From Narcine bancroftii (Eukaryota), in NCBI RefSeq assembly GCF_036971445.1, contig NC_091473.1, positions 216,876,001 through 216,940,000 on the forward strand: a DNA stretch of 64,000 bases, in the 5' to 3' direction. The notes beneath the pieces were generated by a model, which had not been told where the DNA came from, made no database searches, and worked only from the letters and a program-made list of their open reading frames with translations. Both the position numbers and the translations under genes were made by a program. Below are positions 11,123 through 56,801 of this stretch, piece by piece. Within the stretch, counting starts at the first letter, position 1. Each line of letters begins with the position of its first letter.

Positions 11123-12024
11123 TCAGCAATGGATGCGTTTAGAAATGAGAATGAAGGGGGATTTCACCACGTCCTTCAACTGGTCCCGGAACCTGGTCTG
11201 TGTGACGGCGTAGAGAGCAGTGTTGGTGCAACAGCTCAGGAGCTGCATCATAAAACACAACTCCCGCAGAGGTGCAGGTGGAAACATAGACAGATATCCC
11301 AGAAAACGCATTCGGTTCCAAATGTAATAAAGGATAAACAGTGCCCACAAGAGGATGAAATTCCCGGAAATGACCAACAATAAAATAAGAGATTTTCTAC
11401 GACTCGCCATTTCTGGATCATGGGCACCTTCCCCACTGCTGGGAGCCCGAAGTCTCCTGCGGGCTCGACTCGCCACTAACACGTGTCTGATGGTCAGAGC
11501 ATTGAACAGGAGAACCAGGATGAACGGGATTATCGGGGTGAGGATGTAATGGAGAAGCTCAATCGATCCCCAGATTTGCGATTCCAGAAGTCTGGCTCTC
11601 GGCATGCAAAACCAGCGGGCGTAAGCGAGGGAATATTCCGAGGTGAGCATGAAACACCAAAAAATGTTCTTTAAACAGCTGAGAGCGGTCACTGTCCCCA
11701 GAACCACCAGCGCCGTTCTCTCGGTACAATAGTTAGTCTTCAGTTTCTGACAACAGATGGAGACGAATCGATCGAAGGTGAAGGTGACGGTGAACCAGAC
11801 AGAACAGTCGGTGGCGGTGTACAGCAGGAAGGCGTGGACATCACACACGCGGATGGACCGCACGAAACCAAAGTAATCCCGATATGCAATTGGAATCTTC
11901 CTCAAAATCACGTCCATGAAAACGACCATTAGATCCGTGGCTGCCATGGCAACCAGGTAGCGAGTGACACCTTTGGCGAGTCCGCACTTTCCCCGGGACA
12001 GGATCACAATGGTCACAGTGTTCA
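11123..12024 (-). CDS. GPR139/GPR142-like class A GPCR paralog 1, exon 2 (TM1 end to TM7); spliced protein ~377 aa
   Basis: Intact ORF with N1.50 (PVN after splicing), LVAMAATDL, FTFDRF, TM3/ECL2 cysteines and CCTNTALY; AG acceptor at 12025-12026. Confidence 0.9.
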
Positions 12025-12214
12025 CTATTTGTGGGGAGGGAAATGGGGAAATTGCAGGTTAAGCAATGGTTTTGTGCAATATTTACAGAGAACTAAAGTA
12101 CGTTTATTATTCACGTATTCACAAACGTTGTAATACCTGCAACACAGTTTAATTGGGATAAGTTCAATAAAATCAAAGAGGAAATTACAATTCGTGTTTT
12201 CATTTGGAAGTGAA

Positions 12215-12860
12215 ATCAGTGGAGCAGCAGCTTGTAGAAGCGGCGGTTGGGTCTCTTTATAAAGTGGTCAAGTGACGGATAAAAGTGGGGAGAAAGTTTT
12301 GCGGGCGGCCATTTGAGAGCTGCACCTTGGGAGGGTAACAAATGCAATGGTCGCGTTTAAGTGCTGCGGCTTTGGATCGAGAGGCTTCAGCGAGGACAGG
12401 TAGGATGTTTTCTGTCTTTAAGTGGTTTTATCATTGACCGGCAGCATTCGAGACATCAGGGATACTTGAATGTGGCCACGCAAGTCAGATTGGAGGTAAG
12501 AAGGCGTATCTTCACCAGGGAGGGGCGGGGTGGGGGGTGAATAAATGGGAAGTCATATTGTTGCCATATAAAATGTCGGTTCTGCCTTACTTGTGTGCAA
12601 TTCTAGTCAAGCTGTTACAGCAAGAATATTGAGGCTTTCCATGGGGTACAGAAAAGATTGACTAATATGTGTCCTGGATTTGAGGTAGGACAGGTCGCCG
12701 AAATCTGGATTATTTTCTCTGGTTCACCAGCGGCTGATGACAGACCTCATGGAAGTTCATAAAATTATCGGAAGCATTGGTAGGATAGACAGTCGAAACC
12801 TTTCTCCCAGGATAAAAATGCCATTTTAGAATACATTTATTGAAGGTAGGGGTTGGGATC
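12215..12860 (+). mobile_element. Old CR1 fragments in intron of paralog 1 (shared with paralog 2 intron)
   Basis: Aligns with 23595-24410 (e.g. GCGGGCGGCCAT); degenerate CR1 C-terminal coding sequence. Confidence 0.6.
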
Positions 12861-13297
12861 CTCCATGATCACTTCATGGTGGGACACAGTGAAGAGATGC
12901 AGTGACCTAGTCCCGCTACTTCTTTTCAACGTTGTTATGCTTCGCTATTCAAAAGAGCGGGTACTTTGTTTCACGGAGTAATTTGATGAGACTGACCGTT
13001 GACTTTGACGCAGAGGAGTTGAAATGCTGAAAAACATGGGGGACCTGTATATTCGGGGGAAGATTATTAGATTTCAATAAAATTAAACTAGTGGAGAGTC
13101 CGGAAATGTTGCACTTTTCTCGGGCTCTGAAGGCTTCCTGGTCGCGTCGGAAGTTTGGACCTGGAGCTCAGGCTCCCAGATTCCTCCCCCGCCCGCCGCA
13201 TAAGCCGCATGCGCTGCGCCACGGGCTGCGAGAGGTCTGGCTTGAATCCACTGACCCCTTGTGACTCTGAGGGGACTCTCTTTTGTTTCTCTACACT

Positions 13298-54142: not shown

Positions 54143-55138
54143 TGCCCTCTTTAAACAGTGCAATCGACTTGGTCAGTGGCCTCTTTTAAACTGCATCATC
54201 TGGGTAGCCCTCCTGGGACGCGGGTGCAATTATTGGGGGATCTACCCATTAAATCGCCAACCCTGCGATTTCAGGGGGAATCCCGCTCTTGCAATGATGC
54301 ACTCACCAGAAGTACTGCTGAATGTTTGGATGCTGGCTGCCTGTTGGCGCACGTACACAAGTGCTGACATCACCGGATAAACGGGTTGGCCATTTTCATT
54401 TTCAAATCACCTGTGGACACAATCTAGGTAGGTTTAACTGGGATCCCTGACTACCTCTGAAGTAGGTCAGGGACCCGGTTGGATTCCGACGGGGTTGACC
54501 ATTTCTAACTGCTGCGTAACTGGGGCACTAAGCGAACAAATTATCTGGCTAATCCCATTTTACACGGCAGTTTGAAAGGGCCTAATGACTCCTCACAAGC
54601 CATAATGACTCTCTTTGATTAAAACCTTCTTTACAAGGGTTGATTATTTATGAATGTATTTTTTCCAACATCTTACATGCAACTCGCCATAAATTATCTG
54701 ATTTTATCACTTGAATAAAGCTACTATCCGGCATCAGATCTGTGACCATCAGGTAGCCCTCCTGGGACCCCGGGGAGATTACTGGATAGTGTGTGCCTCT
54801 CGTTTCAAATAGCACCCTAACCTTCCTGTGAAATAGCCAACCCAGCAATTTCAGGGTGATCCCGCCCCTGCGATGGTGTGGTGAGCCCCTGTTCCCTGTG
54901 TCCTTGTTTAAAGTTCCAGAGTATCAGGATGAGCCATTCCCCCTTTTAAATAGGCGGAGGAGGACTCCCGAGTAAGTTTTACTGTTCCCTGACCACCTCC
55001 GAGGAAGGTCTGGGACCCTTGTGGATTTTGACCAGGCTTGCCCGGTTCGGCCTTTTCAAATAGCCCTGCATCTGGGTCTTCAACCTAGTAAATTGCCCGG
55101 TGAACCCCATTTTTCAAGGCAATTTGAAAAACCCATGT
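54143..55138. repeat. Two diverged ~440 bp copies of a PIF/Harbinger-like MITE (54143-54582 and ~54690-55138)
   Basis: Shared GGTAGCCCTCCTGGGAC and CCCTGAC.ACCTC.GA blocks; imperfect TIR ending GCAGTTTGAAAGGGCC followed by TAA. Confidence 0.45.
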
Positions 55139-56473
55139 CGAAGCCCAATGAATCTCACCCCTTGCCTCATATAACCTCTGAGGTACTCCTCATTACATCT
55201 TGGAGATACAACAAGATACGATCAAACTCCGTATGGCTGTAGAGGTTGTGGGAGCGCTGCAGGCGAATCCACGGGCACTCAGAAGAGACACACTTGCGCT
55301 TCTCTTTCTTGTACTGTGAGGGGCGCCAGACGACACTAACAGCGATTCTTTGTCTGGCTTACGGCGGTCAGAAGGCAATTTCATATAAAATTCCTTGTTC
55401 TGTATTATTGCGTCAAGTTTATTATCATCCGATTGTATCAGTACTACCCGAGGAAACCGCGTTATCCGGTCTTCGGTGGGAAAAAAACCCCGCAAACACA
55501 CACATCCAGACATCACACATTTACAGACAATCGATACTTGACAATAAAGGAATTTTGAATCTTGAGATATGCCTTACCTCACCCTCTTTTAATGATAACA
55601 GTCTATTCATTATTTCCAAGTCCCCCCACCCCCCGACTCTCTCTCTCTCTCTCGAAATCGCAAAGTCTAAAACCCTTTTGGTTCGTGAATAGAGAGAATG
55701 AATATTCATCCATGTCTATTTGACGGATTCAGGCTGAAAGCACAGAGTCCGTATTGCCCCTCTAATGCATTCTGTTCCCTCCAGCTACCCCTTGCCATTA
55801 TTTTTTCATATAAAATACTTCGGCTTGTCGGCTCATGATATCCCCTGCTTTCCAACTCTCTTTCAAGTTGGCATCTATACTTTCTGTCTTCCTGCAGGTG
55901 ATCTGTTTCTCAAACCAATCTTCTGTTTCGTTTTATTTATATATCGGGAAGGATCGATATCTGGCCTGAACTTTCAACGTTCCACTTTCCTATATCTGGA
56001 CGTCATATTTCTAGCACAAAATGTTTGCAAAATTCAGACCGTTAATTAGTTCGACATCGGAAGAAGCTGGACGGTATTTCATTAGGTAGCAATGAACACA
56101 AAGAGAGAACGAGATTAGGATGGAAGTCGATGTCACATGGCGATCCTGCATGAATATTCAGAGAGGATAAAGGTGCTGGACTGTTGCAAATAGAAGGTGG
56201 TCTCCGTACTTCCTGGTATAGACATGAAAAGAAAGTCAATGAAATAAAACGTGGGTAACTTGATGTTAAAAATTTTCTATTGTGACAGTTGGAAATTGAG
56301 AATAGGCACCGCGTGGGAGACAAAATTACAAAACCTGAAGGACAGTCAACAGCATTTTCACATAACCATTGCGTGGAGTTGCGAACAAGCCGCAAACAAC
56401 TTGAATAGGAGTGGCAATTAACCGCTAAAGAAGAAATGGATTGCACAATTCATTGCTGGACAAAGAGACTCAC

Positions 56474-56801
56474 CGGGAGCAGAAACGAGGGCGAGGATGG
56501 GGTAGTAAATCAGTTTAAAGGCCCGCAGTGCATAATAGATCCGAATGTTTAATGTGAGCCAGTCATCAGGGGCCAAAACATATTGGGCCATCCAGAAGAT
56601 ATTCTTACTCTTGCGGCTCCCACTCCACTCGACTGTTCGTAGATCCATGGCCTCCTCTGCCATCCCCAAAATCCTTCCTCTGCTCTCGTTTACTATTGCC
56701 GCACTAATGTCTGCTGAAGACGAAAGTGCCAATCTCCACTGATGGAAAATAAGCATTATTAATAGGAGGGAGAACGTCCCTCGAGTTGAGACCATCTCCA
56801 T
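56474..56801 (-). CDS. GPR139-like paralog 4, exon 1 (start codon uncertain: 56801, 56795, 56756 or a downstream Met)
   Basis: ...ESRGRILG...RKSKNIFWMAQY...IYYPILALVSAP; donor G|GTGAGT at 56474/56473. Confidence 0.8.

Follow-up and report, generated by a model that had tools for sequence, protein, structure and literature searches.

Four receptor genes in one locus

[quoted passage not shown] Their spliced frames are free of stops and encode 377, 377, 366 and 361 (or 407) amino acids, respectively, and a phase-1 GT-AG intron interrupts an identical codon of transmembrane helix 1 (TM1) in 4/4 genes. An earlier sequence-only reading of this DNA had described four intact, co-oriented paralogs with a shared phase-1 intron in TM1, and both features were confirmed; its end coordinate, 56801, proved to be an in-frame upstream ATG unique to g4. 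The genes form a real, functional array that offers a small view onto a very large, apparently undescribed receptor family of elasmobranchs.

The exon-2 frames of all four genes matched Pfam 7tm_1 at 61–68 bits against a cut-off of 30.5, and an AlphaFold2 model (mean predicted local distance difference test score 79.5) found its best Foldseek matches among class A peptide receptors with template-modelling scores of 0.6–0.8. N1.50, D2.50, P5.50, W6.48, Y7.53 and the cysteine pair linking C3.25 to extracellular loop 2 (ECL2) are present in every gene, DRF replaces DRY, and the class A prolines P6.50 and P7.50 are uniformly replaced by L6.50 and T7.50. The RefSeq proteins matching g1, g2 and g4 are named "probable G-protein coupled receptor 139". 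Five further close Narcine paralogs outside the window (P0122–P0126), on a contig of equal length (257.7 Mb), raise the subfamily's count in this species to nine loci or more; three of the five bear the name "prolactin-releasing peptide receptor-like". A tblastn search with eight diverse relatives detected no fifth copy or receptor pseudogene in the window, the sole extra row spanning 20 amino acids at E 0.038. The coordinates are collected in Table 1. The database entry for g3, P0002, spans the exon-2 frame only, and neither RNA nor annotation shows the g3 splice. In RefSeq isoform X1 of g4 (P0003), a tiny first exon within the g4 intron is used and most of TM1 would be lost.

Table 1. Features of the g1–g4 array (window coordinates)
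Feature	Position	Strand	Remarks
g1 core promoter and 5' UTR	14300..14454	-	TATA-like box at 14449; homologous in 4/4 genes
g1 coding exon 1	14068..14299	-	Runs from the ATG to the TM1 phase-1 donor; spliced model identical to P0121 / XP_069792526.1; 239-base contig with 0 differences in run X1
g1 intron	12025..14067	-	2043 bp, GT-AG, phase 1; contigs of X2 and X3 connect 12025 to 14070, separated by a single letter
g1 coding exon 2	11123..12024	-	Last part of TM1 through the stop codon
Gene-conversion tract in g1 exon 2	11475..11898	-	ECL1-TM3-ICL2-TM4-ECL2-start of TM5
g2 core promoter and 5' UTR	25811..25968	-	TATA-like box at 25958
g2 coding exon 1	25579..25810	-	g2 model contains P0001 / XP_069798654.1
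g2 coding exon 2	22560..23461	-	Conversion tract about 22912-23335
g3 core promoter and 5' UTR	39714..39909	-	Homology with the other genes
g3 coding exon 1	39515..39713	-	Downstream ATG, g1/g2 ATG absent; splice across 8106-bp intron predicted
g3 coding exon 2	30507..31408	-	Conversion tract about 30859-31282; g3-type contig in run X2
g4 core promoter region	56802..56862	-	Homologous to g1–g3
g4 coding exon 1	56474..56801	-	ATG at 56663; upstream in-frame ATG at 56801; model contains P0127 / XP_069792529.1
g4 alternative first coding exon	53273..53288	-	5 codons and phase-1 donor; RefSeq isoform X1, P0003 / XP_069792528.1
g4 coding exon 2	51529..52424	-	Conversion tract about 51875-52298

Selection and transcription of the array

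The four genes evolve under purifying selection. Pairwise dN/dS over 345 aligned codons was 0.22–0.31 in 6/6 pairs (Fisher p<=2e-9), contrary to the neutral value near 1 that had been named as grounds for dismissing the array. For transcription, contigs of four public runs from one study, taken to be RNA by guess, were mapped onto g1 at 85% likeness. Contig cover tracked the exons and the 3' untranslated region (UTR) of g1 and left the intron nearly bare except for a repeat, and the predicted intron junction was crossed, with one differing letter, by contigs in two of the four runs, whose source could be g1 or P0123, its 98% identical twin outside the window. A contig of run X1 carried the g4 letter at 39/39 listed variant sites, run X3 showed the same letters over most sites, and g3-type variant letters were found in a contig of run X2, while no g2 contig was recognised among the matches listed (32 pieces, with 15803 further). 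g1–g4 are functional genes and probably transcribed, so the concern that they might be unexpressed was probably unfounded, as the probable RNA contigs cover exons and cross a g1-type intron.

Relationship to GPR139 and GPR142

GPR139 (PDB 7vug, 9m42), which has GPR142 as its paralog, is the closest characterised relative of the family by sequence. A profile built from 100 family sequences gave human GPR139 as its best PDB match at E 4.7e-15, with the next receptor at 2.2e-7, and human GPR139 aligned to g1 at 30.8 bits (E 2e-6). Identity in the structural alignment was about 20%, and Foldseek, which cannot tell class A peptide receptors apart, ranked GPR139 third. Both share similar TM1–TM3 regions, W6.48, an equivalent of H187 and the absence of P7.50, and the intron position of g1–g4 presumably matches that of human GPR139. 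GPR139 is likewise a two-exon gene (PMC7318219; here and below, papers cited by PMC number are drawn on in part). Unlike GPR139, g1–g4 lack P6.50, possess a longer intracellular loop 3 (ICL3), are multi-copy in elasmobranchs and carry C3.25 with its ECL2 cysteine where GPR139 has D3.25. The longer N-terminus proposed earlier was also recovered: N1.50 is residue 79 in g1 and g2 and residue 44 in human GPR139, the latter number being derived from PDB chimera numbering and residue numbers in PMC7318219. Altered motifs had been suggested in TM6 and TM7; the TM6 change is clear (P6.50 and R6.51 to L and F), but the TM7 motif NTxxY is less distinctive, since GPR139 has NFxxY and likewise lacks NPxxY.

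A further difference lies in the binding pocket. The agonist pocket of GPR139 is formed by F109, H187 and W241 together with the polar residues E108, R244 and N271 (PMC7318219). The hydrophobic set is retained as Y, H and W in 4/4 genes, whereas E108 (3.32), R244 (6.51) and N271 (7.39) give way to L, F and F. Across the family, neither E/D3.32 nor the R/K6.51 and N7.39 pair was found in any of 54 full-length representatives (0/54 each). Because these polar residues are replaced, GPR139-type binding of Trp or Phe by g1–g4 seems unlikely, and amino-acid sensing of the GPR139 type was not supported for the array. The RefSeq name can be read as annotation by best hit, given the weak similarity, the replaced polar pocket and P6.50, and C3.25.

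Judged by their sequences, g1–g4 are not GPR139 orthologs. The weak match and the altered pocket speak against orthology to this characterised receptor, which had been raised as a possible objection; the trees described below contained no GPR139 or GPR142 sequences. The family is likely to belong to the GPR139/GPR142 superclade while being separate from GPR139 and probably also from GPR142. This placement follows GPR139 as the nearest characterised sequence and Atlas neighbours that include FMRFamide/Srw-type clusters; the protostome side of the superclade holds MIP, proctolin, FMRFamide and myosuppressin receptors. A supposed connection of Aplysia chemoreceptors with Srw/FMRFamide receptors was dropped, as the available part of PMC2700072 gave no support for it.

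A large elasmobranch family

The lineage-specific expansion anticipated from the four genes is real and far bigger than the window shows. Searching for homologs gave 1963 clusters at 90% identity (E<=1e-3), some of them outside the family. Among the best 120 of these, 118 were named elasmobranchs and two were unnamed; a hand count of the same 120 gave 47 Heptranchias, 45 Heterodontus and 12 Pristiophorus entries, numbers perhaps inflated by isoforms or faulty models. Clustering at 50% identity left 113 clusters at E<=1e-30, all ahead of the first outsider. The divergent clusters that were looked up came from sharks, skates or rays in 10/10 cases, and no holocephalan name occurred among the cluster names examined. 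Labels such as prolactin-releasing peptide, vasopressin V2 or capa receptor-like are also attached to members (P0124–P0126, P0199, P0165), so counts based on names underestimate the family. One Heptranchias member, P0010, carries four tandem 12-residue repeats with N-glycosylation sequons in its N-terminus.

Representatives with fewer than 255 profile positions were dropped (59/113), leaving 54. A first tree held 102/108 rows, the IQ-TREE analysis 49 rows and the approximately unbiased (AU) test 37 rows, and the IQ-TREE root was formed by six invertebrate-type sequences, one from Helobdella and the others judged by sequence. The family clade comprised 30/31 rows at supports of 95/82 and all 31 at 92/56. 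Within it, the window genes nested with skate genes at 100/99, and in the 102-row tree all eight Narcine rows grouped with a Shimodaira–Hasegawa-like approximate likelihood ratio (SH-aLRT) support of 98, which marks the array as a lineage-specific duplication. The array is a young Narcine expansion.

Neighbouring orphan lineages

The nearest outsiders to the family are other orphan receptors that are likewise labelled GPR139, so the "GPR139" labels in non-mammals span several different genes. The best full-length non-family match (E 1e-29) belongs to the P0244 lineage of amphibians and sturgeon, in which, unlike in the family, each species has roughly one cluster (20 from amphibians and one from sturgeon). 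Its pocket is invariant and has K6.51, N7.39, F3.33 and P6.50, as in GPR139. A DPE..RR motif at the base of TM6 is present in 6/9 P0244-lineage rows and 34/54 family rows and in 0/13 rows of the P0249 lineage. IQ-TREE suggested the P0244 lineage as sister of the family at only 83/64, the 102-row tree left the position unsettled, and the AU test did not uphold the sister relationship: a grouping of the P0244 and P0249 lineages had the higher likelihood and was not rejected (p-AU 0.65). P0244 and P0407–P0426 constitute a conserved orphan of frogs, salamanders, a caecilian and sturgeon and a candidate amino-acid or peptide receptor.

The P0249 lineage, found in coelacanth, teleosts, amphibians, reptiles and sharks, with no mammals among the matches listed, belongs to the same superclade, contains the C3.25–ECL2 cysteine pair and is auto-named "GPR139". 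Its pockets are conserved, each species contributes about one cluster, sharks have orthologs within it (P0289, P0292, P0296), and it forms a separate clade at 100/99 marked by a conserved ERF, R6.51 and the lack of W6.48. g1–g4 do not fall into this GPR210-like lineage, which stands apart and includes sharks itself. At a guess, the P0249 lineage is perhaps GPR210A or GPR210B of Rinne et al. 2019 (PMC6504862); the words "shark" and "cartilaginous" occur 0 times in the available part of that paper. Within the entries P0249 and P0289–P0406, which extend from sharks to reptiles under the labels GPR139 and GPR142, two are annotated as TMEM183A isoforms, which suggests that the lineage lies in or beside the TMEM183A gene.

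Probable gene conversion within the array

A central block of exon 2 is almost uniform among the four genes. Silent divergence among g1–g4 was 0.02–0.06 over alignment codons about 80–220 (TM2 end to TM5) and 0.23–0.50 at both ends of the alignment, with one transitional window at 0.13. Silent-variable codons amounted to 6/109 inside the tract versus 66/137 outside, and clustering of this degree was reached in 0/10000 permutations. A stretch of 137 bp (g1 position 11762–11898) is identical in all four genes. The block is common to the Narcine paralogs outside the window, and skate relatives differ within it. This pattern points to recurrent gene conversion.

No residue varies among g1–g4 in ECL1 and outer TM3 and only 1/23 in ECL2, and 19/27 pocket sites are identical while 8/27 differ. 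Because ECL1-TM3-ECL2 is homogenised and few pocket sites differ, g1–g4 probably bind one ligand class. The suggestion that the array itself constitutes a diverse sensing repertoire found no support, since the four receptors do not differ in ECL1, TM3 or the greater part of ECL2. The repertoire resides at the level of the family.

A variable pocket over a conserved signalling face

Variability was compared at 27 pocket, 27 lipid-facing and 16 G-protein-face positions in the 54 full-length representatives. Mean entropy in the family was 2.72 bits in the pocket, 2.10 at lipid-facing sites (p=0.0013) and 0.63 on the G-protein face, and the order was the same by residue class (1.83, 1.00 and 0.32). 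In the amphibian control lineage the corresponding values were 0.18/0.76/0.42, reversing the order of pocket and lipid-facing sites (p=2e-5), and in a second control lineage they were 0.58/0.91/0.31, with the pocket not above lipid (p=0.08). In 200/200 draws of 13 family rows, the pocket exceeded the lipid-facing sites. P6.50 is retained in 8/54 and P7.50 in 3/54 representatives.

Chemoreceptor repertoires are generally clustered and expanded and combine a variable pocket with a conserved signalling face. The elasmobranch family shows the same features, a large clustered expansion with a pocket more variable than its other surfaces, although this variability is not seen inside the g1–g4 array. 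The likeness to the OR, TAAR, V1R/ORA, V2R and MRGPR/FPR repertoires is functional; there is no sequence kinship, and Pfam gives 7tm_1 only. A conserved signalling face with a pocket that varies beyond the membrane surface fits many receptors for many ligands feeding one pathway. At family level, the earlier idea of an uncharacterised repertoire gained support from this comparison.

Proposed function and alternative explanations

With a rough probability of 0.45, the elasmobranch family is a chemical-detection repertoire deployed in sensory or barrier cells. In this scheme, the conserved intracellular machinery (DRF, N5.58, the basic TM6 base and Y7.53) would couple all members to a common G protein, and the repeatedly rebuilt pocket would bind different external cues; peptides are probable candidates, as are small molecules that are aromatic or derived from amino acids. 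The cells might be those of the nose, taste, skin or gut. g1–g4 would read one ligand class via the conversion-kept ECL1-TM3-ECL2 and may diverge in their tuning, dose or expression. The sensory role, the cells, the class of ligand and the type of G protein are inferred parts of this explanation. The known ligands of the superclade are aromatic amino acids and peptides with aromatic ends, and an aromatic-ending peptide has been argued to be the ancestral ligand (PMC8557429), which makes peptides or related small molecules the best guess for the ligands.

Several points weigh against a chemosensory repertoire. The lists of pocket, lipid-facing and G-protein-face positions are what we take to be general for class A receptors. 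The representatives were chosen for divergence by 50% clustering and perhaps include some faulty gene models, and mean identity within the family was 0.43 versus 0.58 and 0.67 in the controls. Since P6.50 is kept in so few members, ordinary activation cannot be assumed. No tissue is assigned for any family member, the runs being coded, from a single study and RNA by guess, and pocket variability would equally fit immune or endogenous-ligand repertoires. The top 50 specific genes of a catshark brain-plus-olfactory library include no GPCR (PMC11979771), and catshark olfactory neurons are nearly all Go/TRPC2 microvillous cells, matching V2Rs (PMC10116579); because of these two observations, a role in the nose is not indicated.

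An unlikely though substantial alternative is a danger or pattern-recognition repertoire of immune cells or somatosensory neurons, comparable to MRGPR/FPR receptors and directed at microbial, parasite or host cationic peptides. It explains pocket hypervariability and birth-death clustering equally well, and as cartilaginous fishes are without MAS1 and its relatives (PMC8455134), such a role would stand open. Family transcripts in three to four of the four runs hint weakly at breadth, with the reservation that the runs were preselected for containing them. However, no immune expression evidence was seen, and among 32 PDB profile matches there was no MRGPR or FPR, C5aR1 (E 1e-3) being the only related hit. 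A rather unlikely scenario assumes that the receptors respond to endogenous peptides or metabolites in endocrine or neural cells and that their copies arose mainly through repeat-driven duplication and drift, with fold and G-protein face constrained and the pocket drifting or tracking paralogous ligands. The repeat-rich setting (at least 36%), start-codon turnover, the alternative first exon, peptide receptors as kin and the local homogenisation, which suggests redundancy or dosage, are all compatible with it, but drift alone should not raise the pocket above lipid-facing variability, and the window is free of pseudogene copies.

If the database label were taken at face value, g1–g4 would be co-orthologous to GPR139/GPR142 and would detect L-Trp and L-Phe like their mammalian counterparts. 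The best human and PDB match, the two-exon layout (PMC7318219) and the retained W6.48, H187 equivalent and aromatic 3.33 agree with this label, yet it is very improbable: identity is about 20%, compared with 70% between human and zebrafish GPR139 (PMC7318219), the residues E3.32, R6.51 and N7.39 have become L, F and F, and other vertebrate orphan lineages are far nearer to human GPR139 (70 and 53 bits) than g1 (31 bits). An assembly artefact or a set of dead duplicates, to which the 137-bp stretch identical across four copies might point, is scarcely credible given the overall dS of 0.21–0.37, the unrelated introns and flanks and the distinct paralog contigs in independent runs.

Within the chemical-detection reading, a bolder and doubtful version would see an additional chemoreceptor family of sharks and rays that arose independently from the GPR139/142 peptide-receptor lineage, outnumbers the V2Rs (34 in catshark; PMC10116579), is sparsely expressed in olfactory, taste or skin cells and has been masked by the "GPR139" labels.

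Significance and previous reports

The annotation of the genes in RefSeq, under a misleading name, and the superclade are already known, and the expansion itself is apparently undescribed: no description of it was found in the literature searched, which covered few subscription journals and few supplements from bioRxiv. GPR139 terms were absent from the searched supplements of PMC13188829 and PMC10115646 and matched only a GPR142 orthogroup in those of PMC8455134, and in the available part of PMC12294341 GPR139 is mentioned only in a reference. For two 7tm_1 orthogroups, OG0000181 (199 proteins, 17 taxa) and OG0000365 (157 proteins, 12 taxa), PMC8455134 lists no human name, and these could be the elasmobranch family.

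Cartilaginous fishes have been described as having a relative paucity of GPCRs (PMC8455134) and olfactory repertoires that are very small even though the olfactory organs are large (PMC10116579). With 45–47 or more members of one subclade in single shark species, more than 100 clusters at 50% identity and repertoire-like pockets, the family bears directly on this picture whether its role is sensory or immune. It would also be a vertebrate counterpart of the protostome expansion in the superclade (PMC8557429).

Promoters, start codons and splice acceptors

The genes had been credited with homologous promoters. This holds for the TATA-like box and the 5' UTR but not farther out, where homology decays just upstream. 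Conserved non-coding GTTAA and TAATTAA-like elements lie just 3' of the TATA-like box (14390–14450, minus strand, and the equivalents in g2–g4). Start codons have turned over (56801, 56663 and 39713, minus strand): the ATG of g1 and g2 is missing in g3 and g4 and replaced slightly downstream. The upstream ATG of g4 adds 46 amino acids with a hydrophobic stretch, and the signal-peptide-like N-terminus of this long form, not shared by g1–g3, is treated as incidental. An A-rich run stands immediately 5' of the acceptor AG in place of a pyrimidine tract in all genes (12025–12035, 23462–23472, 31409–31420 and 52425–52435, minus strand). The g3 run consists of eight A, and among the four acceptors the junction occurs in contigs only for the g1 type.

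Repeats around the genes

The surroundings had been characterised as mostly transposon debris; their richness in repeats was evident, but a crude tally of self-hits and matches to transposable-element open reading frames (ORFs) gave only a lower bound for the share, 36% of the window. Two window ORFs gave Pfam reverse-transcriptase matches. A near full-length but broken long interspersed nuclear element (LINE) with ORF1-like, endonuclease and reverse-transcriptase pieces occupies 3971–9572 (plus strand). Partial LINE copies of 80–89% identity lie between the genes (15507–17575, 19478–20032 and 41419–43106) and are a possible substrate for unequal crossing-over. An integrase-like ORF fragment without a Pfam match was recognised by eye between g2 and g3 (28501–29067, minus strand). 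The repeat in the g1 intron (13287–13470) equals the 3' end of an element at 17575–18584 and 61041–61232; it had enormous contig depth in 4/4 runs and is very abundant and probably transcribed. Upstream of g4, 57709–58264 and 59608–60171 are inverted repeats of each other, about 570 bp long and 93% identical, and may be the termini of a DNA transposon.

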